Source: Patescibacteria group bacterium (lineage in GTDB: Bacteria > Patescibacteriota > WWE3 > UBA101185 > UBA10185). Taken from it: a stretch of 24,823 bases of DNA. Below, one piece after another: positions 3,914-21,861 of the stretch. The stretch covers positions 1-24,823 of the forward strand of contig JAHIRX010000045.1 in NCBI GenBank assembly GCA_018818485.1, given 5' to 3'. Under the pieces are notes generated by a model. That model was given only the letters and a program-made list of their open reading frames with translations. It was not told the DNA's origin and made no database searches. How positions within the stretch are numbered: the stretch's first letter is position 1; the number at the start of each line of letters is the position of its first letter. Position numbers and translations under genes: made by a program.

Positions 3914-3915
3914 AA

Positions 3916-4140
3916 TTATGATAAAAGAAGAATAAATATAGAATTGGCTACAAGTAAAACGCCGCAAATAATTGTAAGAATAAATACTATCTTTTCTACA
4001 CCCCTTAATGATCTATATGCTGAAAAGGAACTCTTTAGACCAGAGGTTAAACCCGTGCCTTTTGATTGAATTAAAGTTAGAAGAATCAAAAGAACAGCAA
4101 TAACTATCTGAAATGTTTTAGCTACTGTAAGTAAGTTCAT
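3916..4140 (-). CDS. secG: Preprotein translocase subunit SecG
   Basis: 74 aa with two TM segments and the SecG pattern LIQSKGTGL...RSLRGVEKIVFILT. ATGA overlap with the upstream gene. Confidence 0.8.
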   Translation of the reverse strand: MNLLTVAKTFQIVIAVLLILLTLIQSKGTGLTSGLKSSFSAYRSLRGVEKIVFILTIICGVLLVANSIFILLLS

Positions 4141-4553: not shown

Positions 4554-4559
4554 ATTATA
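4554..4559 (-). promoter_or_regulatory. Perfect -10 box TATAAT 6 nt upstream of the ATG at 4547 (candidate leaderless promoter of the holin-secG-mur operon)
   Basis: Minus strand reads TATAAT-taaccc-ATG. The box includes the uvrC stop codon. No SD present. Confidence 0.55.
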
Positions 4560-5895: not shown

Positions 5896-5901
5896 AAACT
5901 T

Positions 5902-5911
5902 ATTGTAGCAT
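5902..5911. promoter_or_regulatory. Overlapping back-to-back -10 elements for uvrC and the transglutaminase gene
   Basis: Minus: TG-C-TACAAT (TG 5909-5910, box 5902-5907), 6 nt, GTG at 5895. Plus: TAGCAT (5906-5911), 7 nt, ATG at 5919. The intergenic gap is only 23 bp. Confidence 0.55.
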
Positions 5912-5918
5912 TTGAAAC

Positions 5919-7619
5919 ATGAGGAATTTCCTTAGAATATTGTTGTTTAGCCTTCTGCTAATACCCACCAAAGTACTAGCATCTGAAAACAATCAATTTT
6001 CTATAAACTATGATCTAGAATATGATGTTTTAGAATCAGGTGAGACTCAGGTTACACAAAGAACTACCATTACTAATCTAAAAAATGATTACGTACCAAC
6101 AAACTACTCTTTTACAGCCAAGCACATGGCAATTTACGACGTTGAAGCAGTTACAAACGGGGAATCCTCTGAAGCAATTATCGAAACTAGAGAAGATGAA
6201 ACTTTAATCTCTGTAATAATAAATAATTATGCCATAGGAGAGGGAAGACAAAATTATATAAGTTTCACATATAAAACCACAGATATTGCAAAAAAGACTG
6301 GAAAGATTTGGAATATTTATATTCCGCGCATTCAAATTCCAGAAACTACTACTCTTTATAATGTGAAACTTCTGATTCCCGAAGATTTTGGACCAAAAAT
6401 ATACCTATCCCCTACTCCAGTTATTGAAAGAGCTGAAGAAAAAAAGAACGCCTACTATTTAACAAAAGAGACCTTTGTAGAAAACGGGATAACAGCAGCC
6501 TTTGGAGAATATCAATCACTTAATTTTAAACTTAAATATCAGTTAGAAAACACATCCATTCTTCCTCTAATAAGAGAGATCTCCTTGCCCCCCGATATAG
6601 AAGAGGTTCAACAAGTGAACTACCTTCAGATTGAACCTAAACCAAAAAGGTTAAAAACTGATGAGGATGGAAATACCATTGCTTGGTATATATTAGGACC
6701 AAAAAAGAAACTTGAAATAAGTGTTACTGGTATCGCTAAAATATCTGGAAAGCAAATAAACCCAGACTTTGGAAGAGAAACTCAGAGTATTCCTTCAGAT
6801 TTGATTAGAAAATATACTGGCGAAGAAAAATTTTGGCAGGTAAATTCCCCAAATATTCAAAAGGCAGCTTCAGAACTTAAAGATACTAATTTAAATACCA
6901 TTAAAAATGCTCAAAAGGTTTATAACTATGTTATACAAAATCTAACTTATGATTTTAAGGCTTTAGAAGAAGGACCGGTTGAAAGACATGGTGCTGAGGT
7001 TGCTCTTACTCAAAAAGGGCAGTGGACATGTATGGAATTTACTGATCTTTTTGTGACACTAACAAGAGCCATGGGGATACCAGCAAGAGAAGTGAACGGG
7101 TACGCCTTCACAAACAACGAATTAGATAAACCTCTTTCCATTAACCTTCAAGGTGGGGATGTATTGCACTCATGGGCCGAATTTTATGATCCATTTTATG
7201 GCTGGATTCAAGTAGACCCAACTTGGGGATCAACATCTGGAATAGACTACTTCACAAAGCTTGATACAAATCATTTTACATTTGTAATAAAAGGGATTGA
7301 CTCAGAATACCCTTATCCTGCTGGTGCTTATAGATTTTCTGACGATGAAAAACTAGTTGATGTAGAACTTTCACAACAAAACAGTGAGGGAAGTTTCAAA
7401 CCCTCTTTAGAAATAAAGAAAAAGCTAAATTTAAATATAGTTGAATTAATAAAAGGTAACGAGAAATATAAAATAACTAATAATAGTGGGGTGTTTGTAT
7501 ACAACTTAGAAGGAAAAACCTTACCTCCAGGAGCTTCTACTACACTTTATTTATCAAAAAACCTAAGAAATATTGCTTTTGAGGATATCAATCACAATAA
7601 GTATTCTGTAGACCTATAA
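5919..7619 (+). CDS. Secreted transglutaminase-like (Cys-His-Asp) domain protein
   Basis: Signal peptide MRNFLRILLFSLLLIPTKVLA. Core motifs WTCMEFTDLFVTLTRAMGIPAREVNG, LHSWAEFY and WIQVDPTWG. Beta-rich N-terminal region. Confidence 0.85.
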   Translation: MRNFLRILLFSLLLIPTKVLASENNQFSINYDLEYDVLESGETQVTQRTTITNLKNDYVPTNYSFTAKHMAIYDVEAVTNGESSEAIIETREDETLISVIINNYAIGEGRQNYISFTYKTTDIAKKTGKIWNIYIPRIQIPETTTLYNVKLLIPEDFGPKIYLSPTPVIERAEEKKNAYYLTKETFVENGITAAFGEYQSLNFKLKYQLENTSILPLIREISLPPDIEEVQQVNYLQIEPKPKRLKTDEDGNTIAWYILGPKKKLEISVTGIAKISGKQINPDFGRETQSIPSDLIRKYTGEEKFWQVNSPNIQKAASELKDTNLNTIKNAQKVYNYVIQNLTYDFKALEEGPVERHGAEVALTQKGQWTCMEFTDLFVTLTRAMGIPAREVNGYAFTNNELDKPLSINLQGGDVLHSWAEFYDPFYGWIQVDPTWGSTSGIDYFTKLDTNHFTFVIKGIDSEYPYPAGAYRFSDDEKLVDVELSQQNSEGSFKPSLEIKKKLNLNIVELIKGNEKYKITNNSGVFVYNLEGKTLPPGASTTLYLSKNLRNIAFEDINHNKYSVDL

Positions 7620-7622
7620 TTC

Positions 7623-7649
7623 TGATATAATGGCACAAAAGTGAAGGAG
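7623..7649 (+). promoter_or_regulatory. Extended -10 promoter (TG-A-TATAAT, 7623-7631) and SD AAGGAG (7644-7649) for the 7655 ORF
   Basis: Perfect TGnTATAAT. The SD is 5 nt upstream of the ATG. Confidence 0.65.
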
Positions 7650-7654
7650 TAATA

Positions 7655-7891
7655 ATGGCTAAGAGAAAGCTGAGTCCAGAAGAAAAGACTGTAAGATCGG
7701 CTGAAAGACTTGTTGAAAAGTGCGAAGGCCGTCCAAACGAAGTTATATTTATTACAGTAGGGAGTGTGGTAGATATACAAAAGGTTATTAACATGGCTAC
7801 ATCTAGGGGAATAGATGCAGAAGTCTGTTGCAGCTCAACACGAACAATATCGGGGTACTTAGATAATTTTAAAAAAGGAAAGGAAAAGTGA
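7655..7891 (+). CDS. Small hypothetical protein, 78 aa
   Basis: Fills the gap between the transglutaminase gene and uvrA and has its own promoter, SD and terminator. No family recognised with confidence. Confidence 0.7.
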   Translation: MAKRKLSPEEKTVRSAERLVEKCEGRPNEVIFITVGSVVDIQKVINMATSRGIDAEVCCSSTRTISGYLDNFKKGKEK

Positions 7892-7892
7892 G

Positions 7893-7922
7893 AAAAAGGA
7901 TTTTTATTTTAAAATCCTTTTT
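7893..7922. terminator. Probable bidirectional intrinsic terminator between the 7655 ORF and uvrA
   Basis: Perfect 12-bp inverted repeat AAAAAGGATTTT-(TATTTT)-AAAATCCTTTTT between convergent stop codons, with T-rich runs downstream on both strands. The stem is AT-rich. Confidence 0.65.
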
Positions 7923-10908
7923 ATTTTTTGTACTTTCTTATCGCATCGGCAGTATACGAATTTTTAGCAGATTTAAGATCTAAAAGGGTTCCTTCAAACA
8001 AGATTTCCCCACCTTCTTCCCCACCCTCAGGTCCAAGATCAATAACCCAATCACAGTTATTAATAACATCTAAGTTATGTTCAATCATAACAACTGTATT
8101 TCCTCTTGCAGTTAGTCTTTTACAGATAGAGATTAAGTTTTCTAAATCTGCAAAGTGAAGACCTGTTGTAGGCTCATCTAAGATATACAAAGTACTGCCT
8201 GTAGATCTTTTTGATAACTCCAGTCCAAGCTTTACCCTTTGTGCTTCACCACCAGATAAAGTTGGTGCGGGTTGACCAAGTTTTATATAGCCAAGACCAA
8301 CATCATAGAGGGTTTGAAGCTTACTTCTAATTCTTGGAACATTGGCAAAAAATTCAAGTGCATCTTCAACAGTTAAATCTAATACGTGTGCGATGTTTTT
8401 ATCTTTGTATTCAACCTCTAGTGCCTCATCGTTATATCTTTTTCCATTACACACATCACACTTAACATAAACATCAGGCATAAACTGCATTTCAATCTTA
8501 ATCTGACCCTCTCCTCTACATGCTTCACATCTTCCTCCCTTAACATTAAAGCTAAATCTTCCTGGCTTATACCCTCTAAGCCTTGCTTCATGTGTCTGAG
8601 AGTACAAAGTTCTTATAAAATCAAATACTTTTGTGTATGTTGCTGGGTTTGACTTAGGTGTTCTTCCAATAGGACTCTGGTCAATAGCGATAACGTTAGA
8701 GATACTTTCTACTCCTTCAATAGATTTAAATGGTTGGGGTTTTTCCTCAATCTTAAGACCGTATTCTTGTCTTAAACCCTGATACAGGGTATCCATAACT
8801 ATAGTAGACTTCCCTGATCCTGAAACACCTGTAACACAAGTAAATTTCCCAAGGGGAATATTTAAATCAACTCCTTTTAAGTTTCTACCTTCTGCTCCCT
8901 TTAATATTAATTTCTTTCCACCAACTTTTTTATGTACTTTATGATTAGTTTCCTGCTCCAGAAGCTCTTCAAGAGCTTTCTGCTTTTTTATTCCGTTACT
9001 TCCTACAATAAGCTTTCCAGAAAGATACTTTCCAGTTAATGAGTTTTCATTCTTCATTATTTCCTCAGGAGTACCTTCTGCAATAATCTTCCCACCATGG
9101 TCTCCAGCACCAGGTCCAAAATCGAAGATATAGTCACTTTCAAACATGGTTTCTGAGTCATGTTCTACAACTAAGATTGTATTTCCTAAACCTCTAAGAT
9201 GGTGAAGGGTTTTAATAAGTTTCCCCTGATCCTTTTGATGAAGACCTAAAGAAGGCTCGTCTAAAACATACAAAACTCCAGAAAGACCAGATCCAATTTG
9301 AGATGCAAGCCTAATTCTTTGAGCTTCTCCACCAGAAAGTTCTGCTGAGGCTCTACTTAAAGTTAGATACCCTAGACCAACATCTACTAAAAACTTAACT
9401 CTATAGTTTATTTCTTTTAAAATAGTTACAGCGATCTGATTTTCCCTTTCTGTAAGCTTATCTGGAAGGTCTCTAAACCACTCCTGTACTTTAGTGATAG
9501 AGAAATCAGCAACTTCTGAAACATTAAACCCATCCAAAACTACTGAAAGTGACCCTGTTCTAAGTCTTGCACCTTTACACTCAGGGCACTCTTCTTTAAT
9601 CATATATTTTTCAATTTCATTACGGATATAGTCAGAGTCTGTTTCCCTGTGCCTTCTTGCAAGATTTGGAATAACTCCTTCAAACCCAGCATCAAAGTCT
9701 CTCTTAGCACCTTCCTGATTTCTATAAACAACTCTGAATTTTTTCTTACCCGCTCCGTACAAAAGAATATCCTTATGCTCCTTCTTAAGCTCCCCAATAG
9801 GTGTATCTATTGAAAAACCATAATCATCAGCGACTGCCTTTATAACTCTAGATGTCCAAGTAATATGCTCAAAAAGCCTAGTCCAAGGTAGTACCCCACC
9901 TTCTGATATTGAAAGTCTTGGATTAATTAACATGTCTTCTTCAATCTTTAATTCAGTTCCAATACCATCACACAGGGGACAGGCTCCATGGGGAGAGTTG
10001 AATGAAAAGGTCCTAGGTTCTATCTCAGGAAGAGAGATGTTACACACAGGGCACGCGAAGTTTTCTGAAAATAGGTGGTCTTCAAAATCTTTAGGAGTAT
10101 CTTCAAAGTCAAAGGTTTTGTCTTTAACAACAGTAACCACCACATTCCCATTACTCATTCTTAATGCTGTTTCTACAGATTGAAATATCCAACTCTCTAG
10201 CTCCTTTCTACCTTTTTCATCCTTAAGTTTCTTCTTGCTAACAATATGTCTTGAAACAAGTGCATCTATAGTATGTTTATTTGTCTTTATTAAATTAAAA
10301 TCTTCGTCTAAACCTCTAACATCACCATCAATTCTTGCTCTAATAATTCCTTGTTTTTTTAGATTTTCAAATAAATTAGAGTGCTCACCTTTCCTATCTT
10401 TAATAATTGGAGAAAATACTATAAAACGGACACCACGTTCGGTATTAAAATCTTTTTCTTCTATCACAGTTTCAATAATCTTTTGGGATATTTCCGCTGC
10501 AGATTGTCTTTGAATCTCTCTTCCACACTTAGGACAGTGAGGGTGTCCAATACGAGCATATAATAGTCTAAGAAAATCATAAACTTCAGTTATAGTTCCA
10601 ACTGTAGATCTAGGATTTTTACTTGTAGTTTTTTGGTCAATAGCAATAGCAGGAGAAAGACCTTCAATCTTTTCAACATCTGGCTTATCCATCACCCCTA
10701 AGAACTGTCTAGCATATGCAGAAAGACTCTCAACATATCTCCTCTGACCTTCAGCATAGATAGTGTCCATTGCAAGAGATGACTTACCTGATCCAGAAAC
10801 ACCAGTAAATACAACCATTTTATTCTTAGGAATATCTAAATTAACGTTTTTAAGATTATGTTGGTTAGCACCTCTAACTAAAATATGATTTAAAGAATTC
10901 TTTTCCAT
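7921..10908 (-). CDS. uvrA: Excinuclease ABC subunit A
   Basis: Two Walker A motifs (GVSGSGKS), signature motifs (LSGGEAQR, twice), DEP motifs and all CxxC zinc pairs. Start moved from 10974 to the ATG at 10908 ([21 protein letters not shown]). Confidence 0.98.
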
Positions 10909-10960
10909 ACAAATTTTTCCCGTGTGTTTAAAAAACAAACACCGAAGGATTAGCTTACTA

Positions 10961-10989
10961 AGTATACATAACATGAATATATCTGTCTA
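10961..10989 (-). promoter_or_regulatory. Sigma70-type promoter of uvrA
   Basis: TAGACA (10984-10989), 17 bp, TATACT (10961-10966) on the minus strand. Confidence 0.65.
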
Positions 10990-11009
10990 CGGGTTTTATT
11001 TGGGTATAG

Positions 11010-11059
11010 AAAAAAAGAAACGAGTTAAACGGTGCCGTAAAGGCTGCCGAAATAACTCG
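11010..11059 (-). terminator. Long hairpin terminator (distal of a tandem pair) downstream of the orphan membrane gene
   Basis: Minus strand CGAGTTA..CGG..GCC-TTTAC-GGC..CCG..TAACTCG followed by TTTCTTTTTTT. There is also a T7 run at 11065-11071 on the plus strand. Confidence 0.6.
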
Positions 11060-11071
11060 CATAATTTTTTT

Positions 11072-11095
11072 AAGAAATGAGAGTGGCGGCTCCCA
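11072..11095 (-). terminator. Short hairpin terminator (proximal of the tandem pair)
   Basis: Minus strand TGGGAG-CCGCCA-CTCTCA (6 bp, one G-U) followed by TTTCTT, 6 nt after the stop at 11102. Confidence 0.45.
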
Positions 11096-11101
11096 AATCT
11101 G

Positions 11102-11683
11102 TTAGGAAATCTTCCTATCGAACTTCTCACTTCCATCCAAACCGGGTATTATCACCATCAAACGAAGACTTTTCACAGCCCCGGAGTAAGGAATGGGAAA
11201 TATCTCTATCCCACCTTCAAAACCTTCAACTTTGCACGCATCAAAGGCTAGAGAATTAGCTTTTCTTAGTCTCCTGTCAAACAGAAGACTTTCTCCTGCA
11301 TACTTTTGTACTGCACGCAGAAGAAACTTTGCGGGAGAGCTCAATTTAGCACCGCGCTTTGCGGACCTGATTAAGACACCAGATTGGTAACTGATGTCCT
11401 CTTCTTTAGCTTCCTTGGCGTAGCACCGAACCCACTTTGTGTTTACTAAAAACATCCAAATGGGTCTAATAAAACTTACCACCAGTCCTAACCACGAACC
11501 TAAAAAGAACAATAAAACATAAAAGTTCTCTTCAGGTGTTTCGTTAGAAGGCCAGCCGAGAAGACCGTAATTAGATAGCGCATAAGTAGTTGCAGGCGCT
11601 GCGATTAGACTACAGATGAGAATAATATACATCCACCACCTGTCGTCATAAGCATCTCCAAACACACGTGAAAATAAAGTCAT
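11102..11683 (-). CDS. Orphan membrane protein, 193 aa (2 N-terminal TM helices plus a soluble C-terminal domain)
   Basis: SD AAGGAG 6 nt before the ATG. Hydrophobic segments WWMYIILICSLIAAPATTYAL and FYVLLFFLGSWLGLVVSFIRPIWMFLV. Flanked by its own promoter and terminators. Family not recognised. Confidence 0.75.
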   Translation of the reverse strand: MTLFSRVFGDAYDDRWWMYIILICSLIAAPATTYALSNYGLLGWPSNETPEENFYVLLFFLGSWLGLVVSFIRPIWMFLVNTKWVRCYAKEAKEEDISYQSGVLIRSAKRGAKLSSPAKFLLRAVQKYAGESLLFDRRLRKANSLAFDACKVEGFEGGIEIFPIPYSGAVKSLRLMVIIPGLDGSEKFDRKIS

Positions 11684-11912
11684 TGTTTTCTCCTTAGGGT
11701 TAAACCCTTATTTAGTTGTGTCGAGAAGGTTAAACCTTTACAGACACATTTGGAATTCTCTACGAATCATCCGCCAATGAAATCGCAGGCAATCTGAGGC
11801 TAAGTGGTTAACCCCAAGTTGCCTACGACTTCCTTTATATTTTCAATGTTCTAAATAAAATAAAGCCAGAGAGACGGCTTTTAAGCAGTACTCCTTCTAT
11901 TTAACTTTACAT
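11684..11912 (-). ncRNA. Candidate structured cis-regulatory RNA leader or sRNA of about 230 nt (no known family recognised)
   Basis: Hand-folded: 24-bp hairpin at 11779-11832 with five G-U pairs on this strand, nested hairpin at 11717-11748, hairpin at 11696-11708 next to the SD, and a terminator-like hairpin at 11862-11881. Confidence 0.55.
11853..11881 (-). terminator. Terminator-like hairpin (class A PBP terminator and/or leader attenuator)
   Basis: Minus strand AAAGCC-GTCTCTCT-GGCTTT followed by ATTTTATTT. Confidence 0.5.
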
Positions 11913-11916
11913 CGCT

Positions 11917-11945
11917 ATTATACTATAAGGTAAATATTAAGTCAA
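11917..11945 (-). promoter_or_regulatory. Near-consensus sigma70 promoter driving the leader and orphan gene
   Basis: TTGACT (11940-11945), 17 bp, TATAAT (11917-11922). The -35 overlaps the PBP stop codon. Confidence 0.7.
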
Positions 11946-14209
11946 TCGTCATCATCTTTACCCCCATCTTCATCTTCCTCTTTTTCAATACACAAAGTCT
12001 CAGGAACAAATGTTCCTTTTATGAAAACTTCAGAAACACCACATTTCTCATCATATTTTACAAAAATATCTCCAAGCTTCTCATAAACTTCATTTGGCTT
12101 TCCATCTAAAACTTCTGTCATTATTTTATTCCATATAGGCGCAGCTCCTGTTAAACCTGATGCGAGGTATCTATTCATAGGAGTACCATCGTTATTTCCA
12201 ACCCAAACACCTACTACATAAGATGGGGTATACCCCAGAGTCCAATTATCCTTTATATTATCTGTGGTTCCTGTTTTTACAGCAACCTTATAACCAGGGA
12301 TCACAAGAGAACTACCAGAACCAAAGGCTGGTGTTCTTGCCACATTATCAGAAAGAATGTGCCATATTAAATAAGAAACCTCACTACTCAAAACCTGACT
12401 ATCTTCTCTTCTATCTTTATATATCTCGTATCCTTTTGAGTCTTTCACGCTTAAGATCGGGGTTGTTTCTTTATATATCCCATTTCTAGATAAAGTCCCG
12501 AACACATTTGTGTGATCCAACAACCTTACCTCCTTACCTCCTAAGGTAACTGATAGACCATAAGAACCATCTATTTTCCAGTTTGAAAGCCCCATTTTAT
12601 GTCCAAGGTCTACAATATTATCTGGACCTACACTACTAGCGACCTTTACAGCCGGAACATTGTAAGAATTAGCTAAGGCTTGGCGCACGGTTACTTTTCC
12701 ATGAAACTTACCATCGTAATTTACTGGAGTATATGGTTTTTGACCTTCTACTTTATAGGTAATTGCAGAATCATCAATTATTGTGGCTGGCGTATAGTTT
12801 CTGCTTAAAGCTAGTGCGTATGTGACAGGTTTTATAGATGATCCAGGTTGCCTATAACCTGTTACCACATCAAAGGCTCCCCAACCCTCTTGAAAATAAT
12901 CAACTGACCCAACATAAGCTAATATTTCTGAGTTTTTTGAATCTAAAACTACCGCGGCTCCATTTGAAAAACCGAGATATGAGTTTTTCCCTACCTCTTC
13001 TTTTACAATCTCTTGAACCTTATCATGAAGTTCTAAATCTAGAGTAGTAGTAATCGTTAAATCTCCTAACTCAACAAATCTCTTACCATATTCTTTCTCA
13101 AGTAACCCTCTAACATAGATTACAAAATGAGGAGCTCTAATAAACTCTACTTGGTCAATAAAATTAAGTTCCATATCAAATGCTTCATCTACTTCCTCTT
13201 TTGAGATATATCTTGTTTCTACCATTCTATCCAGAACATATCTTTGCCTTTCTTTTGCTTTTTCAAGATCAGTAATTGGCGAGTAGCTTGTGGGTGATGA
13301 AGGAAGTCCTGCTAATAAGGTTGATTCTGCAATATTTAATTCCCAGACGTTTTTCCCGAAATATTTTTGTGCTGCTGATTGAATACCCCACGAAGTACCC
13401 CCATAAGGCACGTTGTTTAAATACATTTCTAGGATTTGTGACTTAGAGTATTTAACTTCTACAAGTAGTGCTAAAACTGCTTCTTTTATCTTCCTCGAAA
13501 CAGTTCTCTCAGGAGAAAGGAGTACATTTTTAATTAACTGCTGAGTAATTGTAGATCCCCCTTGTAAATTTCCACCAAAAAAATTGTTCTTTGCTGCCCT
13601 GATAACACTATCTAAACGAATTCCCCAGTGACTATAAAACTTATCATCCTCAACAGCAATCGTAGATTGAATAACATGAAGTGGAACTTCATCCAGACTT
13701 ATGGGATTGTATTTTTTATCTACATATATTTCATATAGTAGCTTTCCATTTCTATCCAATATTCTCGTAGAGCTTTGATTTGCTTTTGTAACAAGTGAGC
13801 CAGGTGTTGGTAGTTCTCTAAACCATCTATAAATTTCAAGAGGGGTGAATATAAAAACTACACTAATAAGTGCTCCTACAAAGTATGGCTTTAAATTTAA
13901 TATCTTAGAAAGTCTCGTCTTAAGATTACCTAGAAACACTTTCCATTTCTTCTTAATAGAAGGAATTATTTTTCTAATGTTTTTAAACCTGTCTACTTTC
14001 TTTCTGGGTACTATTTTAGTCTTTTTTTTGATCTTCTTGGACTTCTTACCCTTAATTTTCTTATTCTTTAGGGCCTTAACTGATGTAGAGATTTCTTTTT
14101 TAACAGCTTTGTAGATTTTTGGAGTGATTACAAGAATCTTCTCAAATGGAAAAATAATAATAAATCCAATATTCTTTATAAGTTTTGATACATTATTAAT
14201 AAAAGGCAT
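11942..14209 (-). CDS. Class A bifunctional penicillin-binding protein (PBP1A family)
   Basis: Glycosyltransferase motifs AVEDDKFYSHWGI, GGSTITQQLIKN, RKIKE and ILEMYLN. Transpeptidase motifs SSIK, SYN and KTGT. One TM helix after a long basic N-terminus. Confidence 0.95.
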   Translation of the reverse strand: MPFINNVSKLIKNIGFIIIFPFEKILVITPKIYKAVKKEISTSVKALKNKKIKGKKSKKIKKKTKIVPRKKVDRFKNIRKIIPSIKKKWKVFLGNLKTRLSKILNLKPYFVGALISVVFIFTPLEIYRWFRELPTPGSLVTKANQSSTRILDRNGKLLYEIYVDKKYNPISLDEVPLHVIQSTIAVEDDKFYSHWGIRLDSVIRAAKNNFFGGNLQGGSTITQQLIKNVLLSPERTVSRKIKEAVLALLVEVKYSKSQILEMYLNNVPYGGTSWGIQSAAQKYFGKNVWELNIAESTLLAGLPSSPTSYSPITDLEKAKERQRYVLDRMVETRYISKEEVDEAFDMELNFIDQVEFIRAPHFVIYVRGLLEKEYGKRFVELGDLTITTTLDLELHDKVQEIVKEEVGKNSYLGFSNGAAVVLDSKNSEILAYVGSVDYFQEGWGAFDVVTGYRQPGSSIKPVTYALALSRNYTPATIIDDSAITYKVEGQKPYTPVNYDGKFHGKVTVRQALANSYNVPAVKVASSVGPDNIVDLGHKMGLSNWKIDGSYGLSVTLGGKEVRLLDHTNVFGTLSRNGIYKETTPILSVKDSKGYEIYKDRREDSQVLSSEVSYLIWHILSDNVARTPAFGSGSSLVIPGYKVAVKTGTTDNIKDNWTLGYTPSYVVGVWVGNNDGTPMNRYLASGLTGAAPIWNKIMTEVLDGKPNEVYEKLGDIFVKYDEKCGVSEVFIKGTFVPETLCIEKEEDEDGGKDDDD

Positions 14210-14236
14210 AGAAAAGACTTGGACAGGATTTGGTTT

Positions 14237-14264
14237 AATATATCTAAATTAACTAAGATGTCAA
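14237..14264 (-). promoter_or_regulatory. Sigma70-type promoter of the class A PBP gene
   Basis: TTGACA (14259-14264), 16 bp, TATATT (14237-14242) on the minus strand. Confidence 0.55.
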
Positions 14265-14291
14265 TCGAAAGTGAGGTACGTAAATGGTAAT

Positions 14292-16283
14292 TTACATTTT
14301 TTTTAAATCTCTTACCTTATCCCTAATTAGAGCTGCCTTTTCAAAGTTTAATTCTTCTGCCTCTAACTTCATAAGTTTTTCAAGCTTTTTTATTTCTTTA
14401 TTAAGTTCTGTTGGAGGTAGTTGTTTATAGTCAATATCCTGCCACTCATCTTTTTTACCTTTAAGCTGTTCTTCAAGTTCTTCATCAATTAATTTCTCTC
14501 TTATAGGCTTAACAATTTGTTCTGGAGTAATCTTGTATTTTTCATTGTATTCAATCTGAATATCTCTTCTTCTTTCAACCTCAACAATAGCTCTTTTCAT
14601 ACTTCCTGTGATGTTATCTGCGTACATAATAACTTCTCCTTGAATATGTCTTGCTGCTCTTCCCATAACTTGGATGAGGGAGGTGTCACTTCTTAAAAAT
14701 CCTTCTTTATCTGCATCTAGGATTGCAACTAAAGATACTTCTGGAAGATCTAAACCCTCTCTTAGCAGATTTATTCCAACTAAAACGTCATATTCTCCTT
14801 TTCTTAGATCATCTAAAATATCTGTTCTTTCTAGTGTTGCAATATCTGAATGGAGGTAAGTTACCTTCATATCTTTATCCTTTAGATAAGCTGCTAACTC
14901 CTCCGCCATCTTCTTTGTTAATGTAGTAACTAAAACTCTTTGCCCTTTTTCTACTTTTTCTTTTATTCTGTTTTCTAAATCTTGAACCTGGCCTTTTGAG
15001 GGTAGAATTGTTATCTCTGGATCAATAATTCCAGTAGGTCTCACCAGGAGTTCTGTAACTTCTTTTTTACTCTGGATAACTTCCCATTCTGAAGGCGTAG
15101 CACTAGCATAAGTTGTGTATCCCCTTCTTTCCATAAATTCATCAAAGTTAAGAGGTCTATTATCTAGAGCTGATGGAAGTCTAAATCCGTAGTCTATTAA
15201 GGTTTGTTTCCTAGATTTATCTCCATTAAACATTCCTCTAATCTGTGGAACTGTAATATGAGACTCATCAATTACTAATAAGAAATCTTTTGGAAAGTAT
15301 TCTAAAAGTGAGTAAGGGGCTTCCCCTTCTTTTCTTCCATCAAAGTATCTTGAGTAGTTTTCTATTCCCTTGCAATATCCAAGCTCCTGAATCATTTCCA
15401 GGTCATAATTTGTTTTCTGGTTTAGTCTGTACGCCTCAATCTGTTTTCCATCATCCTTAAGTTCCTTAAGTCTAATTTCTAAATCCCTTTGAATCTCACC
15501 TACCACACTTTTTACCTTCTCTTCAGGAGTAATATAGTGCTTTGCTGGGTAAATTAGCACAAACTCTGGATCGTATACTCCGTTAGGTTGAATAGTTTCT
15601 CCAGTTAGAGGATCAATATATATAACATTTTGTAAAATATCATTAAACACCTCTAACCTAACTGCATAGTCTCGATACGCTAGGTAAATATCAACTACAT
15701 CCCCTGTAACTCTGTAACTCCCTCTAACAAAATTATAATCTGATCTTTCATAGTGAGTCTGAGATAGTCTTTTCAAAAGATCGGGTAATCTTAACTTCAT
15801 TCCTTTTCTTAATTCAATTACCACTTTCCCATATTCAGCAGGAGAACCTAAGTTATAAATACAAGAAACTGAAGCTACCACTATTACATCTTTTCTTGTT
15901 AGAAGAGAAGTTGTGGTAGATAGTCTAAGTTTTTCTATCTTCTCATTTATAGCTGCATCTTTTTCGATATAAGTATCTGTAGATGGAATATAGCTTTCTG
16001 GTTGGTAGTAGTCATAATAACTAACAAAATACTCAACTGCATTTTCTGGAAAGAACTCTCTAAATTCTTGATAAAGCTGAGCAGCTAATGTTTTGTTGTG
16101 AGAGATAACAAGAGTAGGTCTATTTAGATTCTCTATCACATTTGCCATTACAAATGTTTTTCCTGACCCTGTTACACCTAAAAGCACCTGGTCTTTCTTA
16201 CCAATTTCAATATTTTTGGTGATTTTATCTATAGCTTGTGGTTGATCTCCAGTTGGTTTAAAAGGAGATTGGAGTTTAAACAT
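14292..16283 (-). CDS. uvrB: Excinuclease ABC subunit B
   Basis: Motifs FKPTGDQPQAI, GVTGSGKT, FVSYYDYYQPESY, DESH, GINLLREGLDLPEV, QVMGRAAR and a C-terminal UVR domain. Start moved from 16454 to the ATG at 16283, because the longer ORF would overlap lexA head to head. Confidence 0.98.
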   Translation of the reverse strand: MFKLQSPFKPTGDQPQAIDKITKNIEIGKKDQVLLGVTGSGKTFVMANVIENLNRPTLVISHNKTLAAQLYQEFREFFPENAVEYFVSYYDYYQPESYIPSTDTYIEKDAAINEKIEKLRLSTTTSLLTRKDVIVVASVSCIYNLGSPAEYGKVVIELRKGMKLRLPDLLKRLSQTHYERSDYNFVRGSYRVTGDVVDIYLAYRDYAVRLEVFNDILQNVIYIDPLTGETIQPNGVYDPEFVLIYPAKHYITPEEKVKSVVGEIQRDLEIRLKELKDDGKQIEAYRLNQKTNYDLEMIQELGYCKGIENYSRYFDGRKEGEAPYSLLEYFPKDFLLVIDESHITVPQIRGMFNGDKSRKQTLIDYGFRLPSALDNRPLNFDEFMERRGYTTYASATPSEWEVIQSKKEVTELLVRPTGIIDPEITILPSKGQVQDLENRIKEKVEKGQRVLVTTLTKKMAEELAAYLKDKDMKVTYLHSDIATLERTDILDDLRKGEYDVLVGINLLREGLDLPEVSLVAILDADKEGFLRSDTSLIQVMGRAARHIQGEVIMYADNITGSMKRAIVEVERRRDIQIEYNEKYKITPEQIVKPIREKLIDEELEEQLKGKKDEWQDIDYKQLPPTELNKEIKKLEKLMKLEAEELNFEKAALIRDKVRDLKKM

Positions 16284-16291
16284 ACCTCTTG

Positions 16292-16300
16292 ATAATAGCA
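16292..16300 (-). promoter_or_regulatory. Extended -10 promoter of uvrB
   Basis: Minus strand TG-C-TATTAT, 8 nt before the ATG at 16283. Confidence 0.55.
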
Positions 16301-16309
16301 CAAAAACCC

Positions 16310-16377
16310 TTGACATCTTCGCCTTAGTTTCGGTACTATAAAAATGCGAAGAAAAACCATAAATTTTCCTAAGGAGG
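16310..16377 (+). promoter_or_regulatory. lexA promoter, candidate operator and SD
   Basis: TTGACA (16310-16315), 18 bp, TACTAT (16334-16339). Inverted repeat TAGT-N6-ACTA (16325-16338) overlaps the -10. SD AAGGAGG at 16371-16377. Confidence 0.7.
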
Positions 16378-16384
16378 ATAAAAA

Positions 16385-17014
16385 ATGAGCCCCGTAACTC
16401 TTTATAAAAAACAAAAACAAATTTTAGACTTTCTCTCTCAGTATATTCAATCAAATAGCTACTCGCCTACTTTACAAGAAATAGCTGATGCAATGGGACT
16501 TTCTTCACTAGCTACAGTTCATGAACATCTCCAAGCACTAGAGAGAAAAAACGTTATTAAACGATATGATGGTGCGGTCCGAGGCATTGAAATAGTAGAT
16601 AACAATGTTAATTCTAATTTAAGTGCTATTGAACTTCCTTTAGTTGGGTATATTGTTGCAGGTGAGCCTATCCACGCTTTTGAAGAAGAAATTACTACTG
16701 TTATGGTATCTCCAGATATGGTTTCTAAATCAAAAAGATGTTTTGTTCTTCAAGTAAAGGGAGACTCCATGATTAACGAGCATATTGAAGATGGCGATTA
16801 TGTGGTACTAAAACAGCAAGAAACAGCAAATGACGGGGACAAGGTAGTAGCTTTAATTGATAATGAGTTTGCTACTCTTAAGATTTTCTACAAAGAAAAA
16901 GGTGGAAAGATAAGACTTCAACCTGCAAACGATAAAATGGACCCAATTATTGTAGATTCAAAACAACTAACTATTCAAGGTGTAGTTACAGGCATTATCC
17001 GAAGATACGCTTAA
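16385..17014 (+). CDS. lexA: SOS transcriptional repressor LexA
   Basis: N-terminal winged HTH (SPTLQEIADAMGLSSLATVHEHLQAL), Ala-Gly cleavage site (LPLVGYIVAGEP), catalytic Ser (VKGDSM) and catalytic Lys (ATLKIF). Confidence 0.97.
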   Translation: MSPVTLYKKQKQILDFLSQYIQSNSYSPTLQEIADAMGLSSLATVHEHLQALERKNVIKRYDGAVRGIEIVDNNVNSNLSAIELPLVGYIVAGEPIHAFEEEITTVMVSPDMVSKSKRCFVLQVKGDSMINEHIEDGDYVVLKQQETANDGDKVVALIDNEFATLKIFYKEKGGKIRLQPANDKMDPIIVDSKQLTIQGVVTGIIRRYA

Positions 17015-17050
17015 CATACAAAAAATCTTCCTGTAGACTTAGACTTGTCT

Positions 17051-18358
17051 ATGGGAAACCTGATTCTACCGATAATTGAATACCTTGAAAAGCTCTCACT
17101 ACAAGTTCCACTTGAGGTATTTACCGTTGTTGGTACATTTTTAGAAGAGGTAATTGCACCCATTCCGTCCCCTTTTGTATTAACAACTGCAGGTAGTATT
17201 ACTGCAGCTCAAAATAACCCTCTATCATATATTTTCTATATCGCTTTACTTGGTGCTATAAGTAAAACCCTAGGTGGTTGGCTCCTTTATACCGTTTCGG
17301 ACAAGGCAGAAGATTTCTTGTTTTCAAAATTTGGTAAATTCATCGGAGTAACTCAAGGAGAGATAGAAAAGATTGGTAAATACCTAAACGGTGGTTGGAG
17401 AGATAAGGTTGTTTTGTTTGTTCTAAGAGCTCTCCCTGTTGCACCAAGTTCTCCTATCTCAATAACATGTGGTCTTATAAAACTAAACATTAAAACATTC
17501 TTAGTAACTACATTTTTAGGAACCATCATTCGTAACCTTTGTTACCTTTATCTTGGATACACAGGTCTTTCAGCTTCTAAGTCTGTGGTCTCAGGTCTAG
17601 AAACAGGAGAAAGCATTGGTCAGATTGTTGTAATGGTAGGTATTACTGTTCTACTTGCATGGGGATTTACAAAACGCAAGAAAATGTTTGGGGGAGAGGA
17701 AAACACTAAAATAACCGAAGCTAAAGATCTTTTAAAATACAAAAAGGTGGATCCTCTTCCCAAAGAAGAGTCAGAAGAGTTTTCAACTCTATATATCTTT
17801 AGACACGGAGAAACTGAAGATAACGCTCAATTCATTTTTAGTGGTTGGAGAGAGGCAAAACTTACTGAGAACGGTAAAAAACAGGCACTTGTACTTGCGG
17901 GTAAACTTAAAGATAAAAAGATTGATATGTTAATTTCTTCCCCCCAGATAAGAGCGATCGACACTTTAAAAATTGCACTATCAAAAAATAGAGAGGCAAT
18001 AAATCTAGAGGTTAAGATGGACGAAAGAATAAAAGAAAGATCCTATGGGGACTACACAGGAAAAAGTAAATTAGATATCCAACTAGAGGATCCGGAAAAA
18101 CTTAAAAAGATAAGAAGAAGTTGGGATTTTATACCTCCAAATGGTGAAAGTATTGAGATGGTTTACAAAAGAGTTGCTGAATTTTGTGATGAACTAATTC
18201 CTCAAATCAAAGGAAAGAACATCAATGTTGCTATTTCCTGTCATGGAAACTCCATTAGATGTTTTAGAAAATATTTTGAAGGATTAAGTAATGAGCAAAC
18301 TGCAAAAGTTGAAACTCCTCTAGGACAAGATTATGCTGCCTACACTATTAAGGATTAG
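17051..18358 (+). CDS. Fusion of a DedA/VTT membrane domain and a 2,3-BPG-dependent phosphoglycerate mutase (histidine phosphatase) domain
   Basis: N-terminal half: FLEEVIAPIPSPFVLTTAG, LFVLRALP and FLVTTFLG (DedA pattern). C-terminal half: FRHGET, FSGW, ERSYGDYTG, IRRSWDFIPPNGES and CHGNSIR (dPGM pattern). ATG 17051 preferred over TTG 17045. Confidence 0.85.
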   Translation: MGNLILPIIEYLEKLSLQVPLEVFTVVGTFLEEVIAPIPSPFVLTTAGSITAAQNNPLSYIFYIALLGAISKTLGGWLLYTVSDKAEDFLFSKFGKFIGVTQGEIEKIGKYLNGGWRDKVVLFVLRALPVAPSSPISITCGLIKLNIKTFLVTTFLGTIIRNLCYLYLGYTGLSASKSVVSGLETGESIGQIVVMVGITVLLAWGFTKRKKMFGGEENTKITEAKDLLKYKKVDPLPKEESEEFSTLYIFRHGETEDNAQFIFSGWREAKLTENGKKQALVLAGKLKDKKIDMLISSPQIRAIDTLKIALSKNREAINLEVKMDERIKERSYGDYTGKSKLDIQLEDPEKLKKIRRSWDFIPPNGESIEMVYKRVAEFCDELIPQIKGKNINVAISCHGNSIRCFRKYFEGLSNEQTAKVETPLGQDYAAYTIKD

Positions 18359-19575
18359 TGGTCCTGGAATACTTCTAAGATTCTATTGTATTTTGCCACT
18401 CTTTCGCCTCTTACAGGTGCTCCAGACTTTATGAAGTCTGCACTAACTGCTAAGGCTAGATCTGAAATGAAAGAATCTACGTTATCACCACTCCTGTGAG
18501 AAACAATAACATTCATTTTTGCTTTTCTTGCGAGTTTAACGAACTCAAAGGTTTCGGTTAAAGTGCCTACCTGGTTTGGTTTTACTATCACAGCATTAGC
18601 AAGCTTTTTCTTTATAGCTTCTGCCAAAAGAGCTGGATTTGTAACTACTAAATCATCTGCAACAACCATTAACCTATCTGAGTAGCTTTTATAAAAATCT
18701 GACCATCCTTTATGATCTTTTTCATAAAATGGATCTTCCATATATATCAACTCATATTTTGTAAGCATTCTATTGTAGTATTCCATTAATTCTTCTGTAG
18801 TAAGCTCAATATTTTCTTCGTTTATATCGTATTTTCCATCCTTATAAAAAGATCCAGCAGCTATATCCATTCCTAAAAACACATCATTTCCCACGTCATA
18901 CTGAACATTTGCTGCTTTTTTAATAAAATCTAATGCTACATCACAACAAAGACCTTGAGGTTCAAAACCTCCTTCATCTCCAACTGCTGTTTCAAAGTCT
19001 TCATCCACTAATAGTTCCTCTAAATTATGATAAATATTTACTCCCATTTCTAAAGCCCTATCAAAAGGAGTATTTAGTGCAGGAATAACCATGAACTCTT
19101 GAAATGAAAGTTTATTTTGGGCATGTTTTCCACCATTTAAAACATTAAATATTGGAGTTGGGTATGTGATATCACCATTCTTTTCTTTCCCTGAGTAAAG
19201 CTCTGAAAGATACTCATAAAGCTCTATTTCCTCGGAATCCGCAGCAGCTTTTGCTACTGCCAGAGAAACTGAAAGAATGCTATTTCCACCAAGTCTAGAC
19301 TTATTTGGAGTTCCGTCCATTTCAACCAATATTTTATCTATTTCTTTTTGATCGAAAGGATCTTTACCCACTAACACATCTGAAATGGTGTTATTAACAA
19401 TATCAATAGCCTTGTCTACTTCTACATCAACAGCTTCATTTTCACCTTCAGAGGCGCCATTAGGAACCGGTTGAATACCTACAGAGTCATCATCTAATAC
19501 TACTTTTGTTTCAATAGTCCATTGTCCCCGAGAGTTTAAGATCTTTCTTGCTGAAATAGTTTCAATCTTTGCCAC
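18355..19575 (-). CDS. eno: Enolase
   Basis: Motifs NGGKHA, FQEFM, GDEGGF, MDIA, EDP, ADDL, VKPNQ, SHRSG, IKSG and ERVAKYN, with catalytic residues present. GTG start with SD-like AAGGGGTGAT overlapping the ppsA stop. Confidence 0.96.
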   Translation of the reverse strand: MAKIETISARKILNSRGQWTIETKVVLDDDSVGIQPVPNGASEGENEAVDVEVDKAIDIVNNTISDVLVGKDPFDQKEIDKILVEMDGTPNKSRLGGNSILSVSLAVAKAAADSEEIELYEYLSELYSGKEKNGDITYPTPIFNVLNGGKHAQNKLSFQEFMVIPALNTPFDRALEMGVNIYHNLEELLVDEDFETAVGDEGGFEPQGLCCDVALDFIKKAANVQYDVGNDVFLGMDIAAGSFYKDGKYDINEENIELTTEELMEYYNRMLTKYELIYMEDPFYEKDHKGWSDFYKSYSDRLMVVADDLVVTNPALLAEAIKKKLANAVIVKPNQVGTLTETFEFVKLARKAKMNVIVSHRSGDNVDSFISDLALAVSADFIKSGAPVRGERVAKYNRILEVFQDH

Positions 19576-19581
19576 AGCATA

Positions 19582-21861
19582 TCACCCCTTTTTCTTTGCT
19601 TTCCCTCTACCTAGAATTTTCTTCTCTGCTTCATATACAATTTCTCTGGTTTTTTCTATTACATCAGGGCTTACTGAAACTGAAGTTACCCCCCAATCAA
19701 CAAGCATTTCAACAAGTTTAGGATAAACTGATGGGGCCTGGCCACAAATTGAACATCTTATCTTTCTTCTTCTACATGTAGTAGCTATCTTTTCTAAAGA
19801 TTGAAGTACTGCGGGATCCATTTCACTGTATACATGGGCTACTCTTTCATTATCTCTATCAACTCCTAGCGTTAGCATTGTTAAATCATTTGAGCCGATA
19901 GAAACACCATCGATTCCCTCATCAATAAACTCATCAAGTAAAATAACATTTGAAGGAATCTCAACCATCATCCAAAATTCAAAACTACCACTCCTTCTTA
20001 AACCATTTGCTGACACTATTTTCTTAACTTCTCTTAACTCATCAATTGTTCTAACAAAGGGCATCATCACCCAAAGATTTTTAAATCCCATTTTGTTTCT
20101 TACCTTTTTTATTGCAGCGATTTCCATCTCGAATACGTCATCATCTTTTATATATCTAGAAACGCCTCTAAAACCTATCATTGGGTTTGGTTCTTCCTTC
20201 TCAAACTCAGCACCACCCTTAAGATTTGCGTATTCGTTTGATTTAAAATCATTAAATCTGTAAACAACAGGTCTTGGGTTAAATGCTTCTGCAAACTTTG
20301 CCATTCCTTCTGCAAGCTTATCGATAAACTCCTTCTTTTTTCCATCCTTAATAAACTTTCTAGGGTGAGTCCCAATATTTGCAATAATAAATTCTGCTCT
20401 TAAAAGACCAATTCCATCTACATTTCTTTGAGCCATATCAAATGCAAGTTCTGGTTCTGCAAGATTTAGATATATTTTTGTAGCTGTTTTAATCTTTGAT
20501 GTATCAATCTTTGGTTTTTCACTTTCTTTTATCTCTACAGTAATGTCTTTTTCATAAACCTTACCTCTTTCCCCATCTACAGTGATAACCTCATTATTTG
20601 AAAGGATTTGTGTAGCATTCGTGGTACCTACAACGGCAGGAACACCAAGCTCTCTACTAACAATGGCAGCATGAGAGGTTCTTCCACCAAGATCGGTAAC
20701 AATAGCAGCAGCCCTCTTCATAGCAGGAACATAATCAGGGTTAGTCATCTCTGCAACCAAGATATCCCCTTCCTTTACTTTATTTATTTCACTTGCTTTT
20801 CCAACAATTTGAACTTTTCCAGATGCTACACCTGGAGAAGCTGATAACCCTTCCAAAATAGCTTTTGCCTTACTCTTAGGATCAATCTTGAATTCTTCTT
20901 CTGTTTTAGTAACTAGTGTTGTAACAGGCCTTGTCTGAACAATGTATATTTTTTTATTTTCAATTCCCCATTCAATATCCTGTGGGTGTTTGTAATGGTC
21001 TTCTAGTTTCATCCCAATCTTTGCAAGTTCCACTATCTGTTTGTTGGTAAGTTTTTGTTTCTTTTGATATTTCTTGGAAACTGGTACTTTACCAGCTTTG
21101 GTAAATTGCCAGGTTTGTCTAACAATCTGTCTTGTTGTTATCTTTTTACTCTCTTTATTTACTATGTACTGATCAGGGGTAAGCTCCCCAGAAACAACAG
21201 GCTGACCAAGTCCAAAGGCTGCTTCAACAGATACCTCTCCACGATTATTAGTAACAGGATTTACGGTAAACATAACCCCAGAAAAGTCAGACTGAATCAT
21301 AAGCTGTATAGGAACGGCAATCCCAACTTGTAAATGTGAAAACTTATTTGTAGCTCTATAATAAGTAGCTCTAGCTGTAAAGAGGGATGACCAGCACTTC
21401 TGCACATGTTTTACTACCTCTTTATAACCTTTGACATTAAGATGGGTATCTTGCTGACCTGCAAAGGAAGCTTCAGGAAGATCCTCAGCTGTAGCAGATG
21501 ATCTTACAGCAACGTATTTGTCGTTTTCCCCACTAAGTTTGTGGTAGGCCTCCTTTATCTCTTCTGCCAATTCTTTAGGCATATCAGCAGCTAATATTGC
21601 TGTTCTTATTTTCTTTGCAGCTGATTGGAGTTCCTTTGAATCTTCATAGTCAAGACCTTGAAGCTCAGTAAGTATTTTTTTCTTTAGGGACGTGGATTTA
21701 AGAAAATCATAGTAGGCTTTAGCTGTAACTACAAAACCATCAGGAACGGGAATTTTCGCATTAATCATTTCTCCAAGGTTAGCTCCTTTTCCACCTACCA
21801 AGGGAATATCATATCTTCTAATATCCTTAAATCTAAGAATGTGGGCAGATTTCTTGCTCAT
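19582..21861 (-). CDS. ppsA: Phosphoenolpyruvate synthase (pyruvate, water dikinase)
   Basis: Motifs VGGKGANLGEM, AVRSSATAEDLPEASFAGQQ, phospho-His GGRTSHAAIVSRELG, GLLRAEF, EEPNPMIGFRG, MVEIPSN, SIGSNDL and ICGQAPS. Confidence 0.97.
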   Translation of the reverse strand: MSKKSAHILRFKDIRRYDIPLVGGKGANLGEMINAKIPVPDGFVVTAKAYYDFLKSTSLKKKILTELQGLDYEDSKELQSAAKKIRTAILAADMPKELAEEIKEAYHKLSGENDKYVAVRSSATAEDLPEASFAGQQDTHLNVKGYKEVVKHVQKCWSSLFTARATYYRATNKFSHLQVGIAVPIQLMIQSDFSGVMFTVNPVTNNRGEVSVEAAFGLGQPVVSGELTPDQYIVNKESKKITTRQIVRQTWQFTKAGKVPVSKKYQKKQKLTNKQIVELAKIGMKLEDHYKHPQDIEWGIENKKIYIVQTRPVTTLVTKTEEEFKIDPKSKAKAILEGLSASPGVASGKVQIVGKASEINKVKEGDILVAEMTNPDYVPAMKRAAAIVTDLGGRTSHAAIVSRELGVPAVVGTTNATQILSNNEVITVDGERGKVYEKDITVEIKESEKPKIDTSKIKTATKIYLNLAEPELAFDMAQRNVDGIGLLRAEFIIANIGTHPRKFIKDGKKKEFIDKLAEGMAKFAEAFNPRPVVYRFNDFKSNEYANLKGGAEFEKEEPNPMIGFRGVSRYIKDDDVFEMEIAAIKKVRNKMGFKNLWVMMPFVRTIDELREVKKIVSANGLRRSGSFEFWMMVEIPSNVILLDEFIDEGIDGVSIGSNDLTMLTLGVDRDNERVAHVYSEMDPAVLQSLEKIATTCRRRKIRCSICGQAPSVYPKLVEMLVDWGVTSVSVSPDVIEKTREIVYEAEKKILGRGKAKKKG

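Follow-up and report, generated by a model that had tools for sequence, protein, structure and literature searches.

A DedA membrane domain fused in frame to a phosphoglycerate mutase-type domain in a groundwater patescibacterium

One gene of a tiny groundwater bacterium (Patescibacteria), located on contig JAHIRX010000045.1, joins a DedA-type membrane domain to a cofactor-dependent phosphoglycerate mutase (dPGM) domain within a single polypeptide. This dedA-pgm fusion occupies positions 17045..18358 of the forward (+) strand in the 24,823-nt stretch of DNA that we analysed (hereafter ‘the window’, to which all coordinates refer; residues are counted from the TTG codon at 17045). We confirm it to be a real, intact and conserved union of two neighbouring genes: a new domain architecture assembled from two known families, the origin of which is unusually well recorded. 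Our preferred reading, held with moderate confidence, is that of one polypeptide with two jobs—a polytopic DedA protein of a divergent subtype that we term T1, and a dPGM—the halves of which most likely work independently, the fusion having started as a tolerated accident of adjacency that was then locked in.

DedA proteins are amongst the most widespread membrane proteins of debated function, and the domains to which they are fused have served as clues to what they do; the glycolytic enzyme conserved in this fusion is a new kind of DedA partner. Should the halves be independent, the locus would stand as a warning against ‘Rosetta stone’ readings of function in streamlined, strongly syntenic genomes; should they cooperate, it would provide a handle both on DedA function and on a membrane-bound glycolytic step in ultra-small bacteria. 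We consider the interest moderate, since the fusion could well be a tolerated accident of gene order. Full-text literature searches retrieved no description of a DedA-mutase fusion, in line with the initial annotation of the window, the author of which knew of none. In 2023 Todor, Herrera and Gross compiled fusions of DedA (DedA-PAP2, DedA-rhodanese and DedA-pyridine-nucleotide oxidoreductase; PMC10127716) that likewise place a VTT/DedA domain and a soluble enzyme domain in one polypeptide, but no His_Phos_1 domain appears amongst the partners given in section 4 of that article, and the partner here is an enzyme of central metabolism rather than a lipid-phosphate phosphatase. The survey omitted phyla with poor representation (PMC10127716).

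A continuous reading frame through both domains

The fused gene is a single open reading frame of 437 codons plus stop. The longest version starts at the TTG codon at 17045; the ATG at 17051 (residue 3) agrees with the starts of homologues and is probably the true initiation codon. Both Pfam domains lie in this same frame—VTT_dom at residues 40–172 (E 1.3e-15; 58.4 bits against a cut-off of 33.9) and His_Phos_1 at residues 249–424 (E 1.9e-38; 132.5 bits against 21.7)—and the motifs RHG, SGW, ERSYG, RRSW and HGNSIR are all present in the translation, bearing out the initial annotation’s description of one uninterrupted frame with a DedA/VTT domain and a complete dPGM-like domain.

The region of the junction (17594–17900) is spanned, with zero indels, by contigs from three DNA runs belonging to three studies (X1, 16900–18087; X2, 17413–18450; X4, 17624–18039) and by one contig from an RNA library (X12, 17594–17900). 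The four substitutions seen in these contigs (M197 to I, V202 to A, G216 to C, or silent) create no stop. An assembly artefact, in which a lost stop or frameshift error mimics a fusion, is for practical purposes refuted: frames broken in genomes G090 (inside the DedA half) and G087 (near the 3' end) tell us that errors or pseudogenes do occur amongst these draft genomes, but four independent runs cross this junction intact, both domains are found together in homologue clusters from several sources, and complete in-frame copies recur in related genomes. The initial annotation had named two things that would speak against a fusion, separate genes in close relatives and a stop or frameshift in the linker; separate genes do exist, in more distant relatives, whilst the junction itself contains neither a stop nor a frameshift.

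Both Pfam domains occur together in 83 of the 120 best homologue clusters listed, down to ~50% identity. The few clusters that carry a taxonomic name are labelled candidate division WWE3 or Patescibacteria; one further listed cluster, P0117 (39% identity), is a separate case, involving a second DedA type (T2, below). Within the class, 122 of 134 genomes give a match at E<=1e-5, and the fusion itself occurs in 22, spanning 6 genera. Eighteen of these copies are whole with an intact frame (amongst them that of G100, known only from the genome search and lying outside the mapped loci), those of G087, G089 and G132 are partial or interrupted close to one end, and that of G090 is frameshifted within its DedA half. 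A library of representatives at 50% identity contains the T1 fusion as a single entry (P0005) and is therefore unable to reveal its spread; the ESM Atlas returned no usable match. Automatic annotation has given the fused proteins names like ‘histidine phosphatase family protein’ and ‘PhoE/membrane protein DedA’, which obscure the fact that each is probably the sole phosphoglycerate mutase of its organism.

The ‘linker’ is mostly the mutase’s own extension

Moving from the membrane domain towards the mutase, residues 210–247 (17672..17785, +) comprise a basic patch (KRKK), a short variable spacer and the remnant of an N-terminal extension belonging to the mutase (helix 217–230, Y232 and PLPK at 237–240), as identified by homology to unfused mutases. 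In relatives these free-standing enzymes are 225–257 aa long and bear a conserved soluble extension (...KYxKExVDEAxxYLxY..., then (P/E)(L/M)PK some ~10 residues before the first strand), to the final stretch of which ~30 of the ‘linker’ residues (ITEAKDLLKYKKVDPLPKEES) are homologous; these residues are therefore not spacer. The charged linker of ~35 aa in the initial annotation thus survives as a stretch of sequence, but not in the role it was given, the true free spacer being ~8 residues following the KRKK patch.

Within the extension Y232, P239 and K240 are invariant across 45 fused proteins, and some fused relatives retain it entire. The distance from the basic patch to the FRHG motif varies from 39 to 68 residues, with a median of 43 (71 full-length measurable fused proteins). 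In an AlphaFold2 (AF2) model the local confidence score (pLDDT) drops below 50 at residues 216–218 and is about 50 over 211–220, recovering to ~82 at 221–240.

Origin of the fusion within a conserved gene block

Throughout the class, pgm sits in a conserved block (uvrB< lexA> [dedA] pgm> eno< ppsA<). The DedA proteins concerned divide across a branch with support of 100: T1, on one side, has 20 fused and 14 unfused copies, whilst T2 forms a separate clade on the other. We mapped the genes next to pgm at 106 loci, from 106 of the genomes holding the mutase family. T1 is fused at 20 of these; at a further two it lies on the same strand as pgm, in tandem with a 27-nt gap in G098 and as the broken fusion of G090. 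Divergent neighbours with no gene between number 12 for T1 and 32 for T2, and a tandem T2 is seen at three loci (G107–G109, gaps of 8–35 nt). For the remaining arrangements, lexA is directly adjacent to pgm at 10 loci, a DedA gene lies 0.7–1.8 kb away with 1–3 genes between at 11, T2 is found just downstream of pgm at two, and there is no DedA gene within 3 kb at 24; these last four counts overlap, the 10 lexA-adjacent loci being counted again by DedA distance. Taken together, DedA is either fused to pgm or its immediate 5' neighbour at 69/106 loci; lexA is the next gene beyond dedA or pgm at 70/106, and eno lies directly downstream of pgm at 74/106. In family f4 the divergent dedA and pgm are separated by a 241-aa gene (L025:5896-6621, L031:5336-6061), which we would guess to be an RsmI-like methyltransferase.

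The separate dedA and pgm genes of more distant relatives represent the ancestral state. In a lexA+eno tree of 69 genomes, the genome studied here (G000), G103 and genus g28 form a clade with support of 99. Two genomes having the mutase without a fused DedA half, G083 and G093, nest inside this clade next to G082 (support 98), each carrying a T2 gene beyond lexA; from their position among fused genomes, the DedA half was lost there secondarily. A second group of fused genomes (G099, G101, G119, G131, G133; support 100) sits apart, on the unresolved backbone of the tree. Constraining all fused and mutase-only genomes to one clade gave a log-likelihood (lnL) 12.68 better than the free quick search (p value of the approximately unbiased test, p-AU, 0.648), and adding the tandem G098 to the constraint gave one 16.08 better (p-AU 0.679); the data thus allow, without proving, a single inversion followed by a single fusion.

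Comparison among relatives shows the path taken. Within the conserved block dedA switched from a divergent to a tandem position beside pgm by inversion, an arrangement still seen in the unfused pair of G098; the stop and gap separating the two genes then disappeared to give the fusion. One sub-lineage (G083 and G093) subsequently deleted the DedA half and retained the mutase, and has another DedA paralogue.

T2 has also been joined to the same mutase. Two such fusions, P0117 and P0334, are each 443 aa long, 96% identical and found on two contigs, the end of the DedA domain running directly into the mutase’s own Met; on a third contig, from a strain ~96% identical to these, an indel at the junction splits the T2 and mutase genes. 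The mutase of P0117 is sister to that of unfused P0270 (support 99). A mutase tree constrained to join P0117 to the T1 fusions is worse by 50.79 lnL, but its p-AU of 0.092 falls short of rejection by this test alone. Because the DedA parts come from different clades and the closest mutase relative is unfused, we see this as a separate, and younger, event. The locus as a whole displays a gene fusion at several stages, from divergent neighbours and a tandem pair through the fusion itself to a secondary loss, alongside a parallel fusion that is young and still polymorphic, and provides a clean natural example of the way in which fusions come about.

Orientation and coupling of the two halves

As we picture it, the mutase would hang from the cytoplasmic face of the membrane by a tether of ~40 residues, composed mostly of its own old N-terminal extension, and the fusion would have become locked in since both halves are needed. 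The distribution of Lys and Arg residues (seven in loop 85–121, one in loop 174–190, plus the KRKK patch that follows helix 191–208) places the C-terminal domain in the cytoplasm by the positive-inside rule, in agreement with the unfused mutases, which have neither signal peptide nor membrane segment. The mutase domain should therefore be cytoplasmic.

Several observations lead us to think that the halves act independently. The tether is variable in length. With a predicted TM-score (pTM) of 0.53 set against a mean pLDDT of 85, the AF2 model offers no confident placement of the DedA and mutase domains relative to each other. Fusions of the same Patescibacteria-type mutase family to adenylate kinase (P0266, 416 aa) and to the first part of PPDK_N (P0268, 453 aa) are seen as well, and this mutase seems to accept N-terminal partners readily. 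In its adjacency, DedA is no more constant than lexA, which is unrelated, or than eno. Finally, the DedA half can be dropped, as in G083 and G093, and the T2 fusion is polymorphic between near-identical strains.

Other features weigh against this reading. Either of the two DedA paralogues can occupy the position beside pgm as a divergent neighbour, and both have yielded fusions, that of T1 being old and kept down to ~50% identity; such a pattern would be consistent with a true partnership too. As for orientation, the cytoplasmic placement draws on just the positive-inside rule and the lack of signal peptides in unfused mutases; the disposition of DedA termini differs between subfamilies, according to the relevant part of Todor et al. 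(PMC10127716), and the accessible portion of a preprint on YqjA topology (10.1101/2021.10.18.464800) does not place the C-terminus of the T1 subtype.

The strongest competing explanation is that DedA and the mutase act jointly at the membrane, the fusions merely cementing a complex that already existed. This could take the form of the mutase extension docking onto DedA, or of a coupling between the supply of phosphoenolpyruvate (PEP; via phosphoglycerate mutase, enolase and MurA) and the handling of lipid carrier for wall synthesis. In its favour stand the 69 loci with DedA fused or immediately 5' to pgm, together with the two where it lies just downstream; the occupation of this slot by two paralogues from opposite sides of a fully supported branch, at least six genomes (G031, G047, G057, G074, G104, G111) holding both types; the recovery of fusions from each, with the T1 fusion persisting in 6 genera; the extension conserved on all unfused mutases; and the presence of MurA, MraY, MurG and FtsW in the same window. 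On the other hand, the entire block is syntenic, with lexA and eno as constant as DedA; 24 loci lack a DedA gene within 3 kb, and at 10 it is lexA that stands directly beside pgm; G083 and G093 have discarded the fused DedA half; the T2 fusion is polymorphic among strains ~96% identical; the model gives no confident domain placement; and G111, a genome with a cofactor-independent phosphoglycerate mutase (iPGM), keeps both of its DedA types away from the eno-iPGM pair. To our knowledge, no chemistry connects 2- or 3-phosphoglycerate with a DedA substrate. On balance we regard such a partnership as fairly unlikely, and its more general expression—a membrane complex of DedA and the Patescibacteria-type dPGM that ties lower glycolysis and PEP supply to whichever lipid or solute DedA moves—as simply unlikely; if true, it would furnish the first metabolic partner for a DedA protein.

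The DedA half

The membrane half comprises residues 1–209 (17045..17671, +) and is recognised from its Pfam VTT_dom match and the helices of the AF2 model; its motif and its place on the T1 side of the supported branch give the subtype. The model has the VTT pattern of two re-entrant plus membrane-spanning helices (pLDDT mostly 76–93), with the first re-entrant tip formed by APIPSP (38–43), the second by RALPVAPSSP (128–137), and the last membrane helix at ~191–208. Amongst 45 fused proteins, with overall identities of 49–79%, ~25 positions of this half are invariant, including E34, E35, P39, P41, S42, P43, R128 and P131.

The hallmark of the COG0586 undecaprenyl-phosphate flippases is a set of four residues at the re-entrant tips—E39, D51, R130 and R136 in YghB—reported as essential in the passages of Todor et al. 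that treat them (PMC10127716). The VTT fold and the equivalents of E39 and R130 are retained in T1, whereas those of D51 and R136 are Pro, giving an E/P/R/P signature (E34, P43, R128 and P134 of the fusion itself) in 18–20 of 20 fused and 13–14 of 14 unfused copies. T2 differs from T1 in having the full E/D/R/R set of COG0586 (39–40 of 40 copies), and the DedA copies of family f4 have an intermediate motif, E/E/R/R. Although the NCBIfam UptA equivalogs are the best N-terminal matches, the scores fall well short of the cut-offs (47.5 bits against 300 and 43.5 against 250). From this motif and these scores we conclude that T1 is a DedA protein, yet one that fails the canonical UptA test. A DedA ‘phosphatase’ motif described elsewhere, ESSF(F/L/I/V)P, is a different one, as given in the part of that paper concerned (PMC6355987).

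The fusion supplies the only VTT match in 20 of the 22 genomes that carry it, the exceptions being G000 and G123, each with a second match; at least one VTT gene is kept in 126 of the 134 class genomes. The other VTT protein of G000, of 180 aa (L002:1324-1866, contig C48), is one that we take to be YqaA-like. BacA/UppP is present in the same genome, in which no DUF368/PopT match was found, and the 180-aa protein and the fusion appear to be its only candidates for flipping of the lipid carrier.

We considered whether the DedA half might have decayed to a mere membrane anchor, with only the mutase working and its tethering under selection. The substitution of two of the four residues described as essential (P43 for D51 and P134 for R136; PMC10127716, in the passages noted above) and the low UptA scores would be expected from such decay. 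However, the E/P/R/P motif is also found in free-standing T1 genes and is therefore older than the fusion; the ~25 invariant positions, and the retention of the fusion as the sole VTT gene in most genomes that have it, within a class where nearly all genomes keep one, argue likewise against loss of function, as does the T2 copy held by both genomes that dropped the T1 half. We thus think an anchor quite improbable; the DedA half appears to be functional rather than decaying.

The mutase half

Residues 248–437 (17786..18355, +) form a short-form dPGM core, as identified by Pfam, the NCBIfam dPGM subfamily model TIGR01258, the structure 1fzt, alignment with the Escherichia coli enzyme and Foldseek. 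The catalytic His254 is encoded at 17804–17806 (+) and the second His, His400, at 18242–18244 (+). The score for TIGR01258 exceeds its cut-off (96.3 bits against 81.7). The best match of known structure is 1fzt (E 1.8e-25, aligned over residues 248–429), which we take to be the fission-yeast enzyme, and the top Foldseek matches are all dPGMs. 1fzt and the mutase half have the same catalytic and substrate residues and both lack a loop of ~25 residues found in GpmA (Foldseek TM 0.80 on the target); 1fzt is, however, a free soluble protein, whereas the mutase half is attached to a membrane protein and preceded by its conserved extension (a helix and the PLPK motif). The 1fzt entry describes a monomeric glycolytic mutase of 23.7 kDa, and the mutase half is probably monomeric too.

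Alignment with E. coli GpmA (b0755; 31% identity) brings the RHG, N, (S/T)GW, R, ERxYG, K, RR and HGNS(L/I)R elements into register; GpmA differs in being soluble, in its C-terminal tail and in the additional loop of ~25 residues. Shared by the mutase half and GpmA, but absent from YtjC (a ‘putative phosphatase’) and CobC, are the residues that we take to define a mutase: Tyr in the ERxYG motif, Lys in the GxxK ~8 residues on, the Arg-Arg pair and Asn in HGN. Invariant in the 45 fused proteins are R253, H254, G255, N260, S266, G267, R303, E331, Y334, K342, R357, R358, H400, G401 and N402.

The genomic context agrees. The genome of G000 (564,558 bases in 86 contigs, 84.6% complete) encodes GAPDH, PGK, enolase and PpsA/PPDK; it has a single His_Phos_1 match, the fusion, and no Metalloenzyme (iPGM/apgM) match within the part recovered. 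The fusion is thus the sole candidate in this genome for the step between PGK and enolase. Across the class the mutase family alternates with iPGM: of the 134 genomes, 107 have the family, none with a full-length iPGM (G119 has only a partial match of 77 positions), and 11 have a full-length iPGM, none of these matching the mutase half at E<=1e-20. In G111, the iPGM genome that we examined, the iPGM gene directly follows enolase. With the queries used, the remaining 16 genomes have neither. Ten of ten genomes in family f7 (G018–G027; completeness 80–92%) gave no dPGM-family or iPGM match with these queries, each having a VTT gene; the step may be absent there, or an unrecognised enzyme may be in use. 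Jaffe et al., in the part of their article concerned (PMC7304191), treat phosphoglycerate mutase in the candidate phyla radiation as present or absent only.

Some points count against so simple an assignment. Scores of the mutase half against the equivalog-level dPGM models of NCBIfam all lie far under the respective cut-offs (99.3 bits against 320 for NF002217). Its conserved N-terminal extension with the PLPK motif is unusual. A second mutase could sit in the unseen 15% of the genome, given its completeness. The second catalytic His is replaced by Ser in two unfused members, that of G049 (L022:5099-5794) and P0113 (CSSNS and CSGNS in place of CHGNS), and G049 has no iPGM either, so that the family is not an indispensable mutase everywhere; G049 may have no working phosphoglycerate mutase, or its family member may have another role.

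A different activity for this domain has also to be weighed: it might be a phosphatase, with the DedA half handling its substrate, lipid-linked or otherwise. DedA-PAP2 fusions provide a precedent (PMC10127716, amongst the fusions listed there); the superfamily is rich in phosphatases, with models for alpha-ribazole and phosphoserine phosphatases matching at E 1e-26 to 1e-19, all of them under their cut-offs; and the long loop and C-terminal tail of GpmA are missing. Against this, every GpmA-specific residue tested is present, and none of these is found in the phosphatase paralogues; the short form is that of 1fzt; BacA/UppP is encoded elsewhere in the genome; the genome as recovered would otherwise be left without a phosphoglycerate mutase, the family alternates with iPGM, and the gene adjoins eno-ppsA. 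Nor does the fusion have a PAP2 match in Pfam, its partner domain being His_Phos_1. We therefore hold a phosphatase to be very unlikely, and the C-terminal half to be most likely a genuine 2,3-bisphosphoglycerate-dependent phosphoglycerate mutase of the short form. The initial annotation had offered two interpretations, the first of which, membrane-tethered lower glycolysis, stands as far as sequence can take it (the GpmA residues, TIGR01258, the sole His_Phos_1 match, the lack of an iPGM and the alternation with iPGM), whilst the second, a histidine phosphatase repurposed for recycling of the lipid carrier, finds no support, given the mutase-type residues, BacA/UppP and unfused orthologues that lack a membrane segment. 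For the suggested supply of imported host phosphoglycerate, the analysis produced evidence on neither side.

Neighbouring genes

Immediately upstream, and on the same strand, is lexA (16385..17014, +; Pfam LexA_DNA_bind and Peptidase_S24), a member of the conserved block that ends 30 nt before the fusion. A scan of 16200–18600 placed no terminator-like site between the two, and over its whole length gave nine promoter-like sites (6.7 +/- 3.0 expected) and one terminator-like site (1.6 expected). Downstream, the gene for the next enzyme of the pathway, enolase (18355..19575, -; Enolase_N and Enolase_C), is convergent with the fusion and overlaps its stop; an operon-like arrangement then links enolase to a PpsA/PPDK-like gene (19582..21861, -; PPDK_N, PEP-utilizers and PEP-utilizers_C), which follows eno in relatives also. 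The initial annotation was thus right to describe the fusion as abutting eno-ppsA.

Elsewhere in the window lie murG (partial), ftsW, mraY, murA, uvrC, uvrA and uvrB, the genes of a two-component pair, an LCP gene and two genes for penicillin-binding proteins (PBPs), the first of class A; the MraY, FtsW, PBPs and LCP of the initial annotation are accordingly all present, with MurA and MurG in addition. We take a gene of the EPSP_synthase family, 13 kb from the fusion (2591-3967, -), to encode MurA, which uses PEP in the opening step of wall synthesis. In G106 (L037) and G120 (L039) a MurA homologue directly follows pgm, replacing eno-ppsA.

The genes uvrC, uvrA, uvrB and lexA fall within 12 kb (4555-16454), interspersed with genes of the cell wall, for a PBP and for a transglutaminase-like protein. 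In its longest frame, from a TTG at 16454, uvrB shares 70 nt with the beginning of lexA; matches in relatives begin mostly from ~residue 58, so that the true start of uvrB is probably later. Between murA and uvrC lies a gene for a 136-aa membrane protein (4137-4547, -) that matches Phage_holin_4_2 (E 5.1e-07; 30.7 bits against a cut-off of 28.8).

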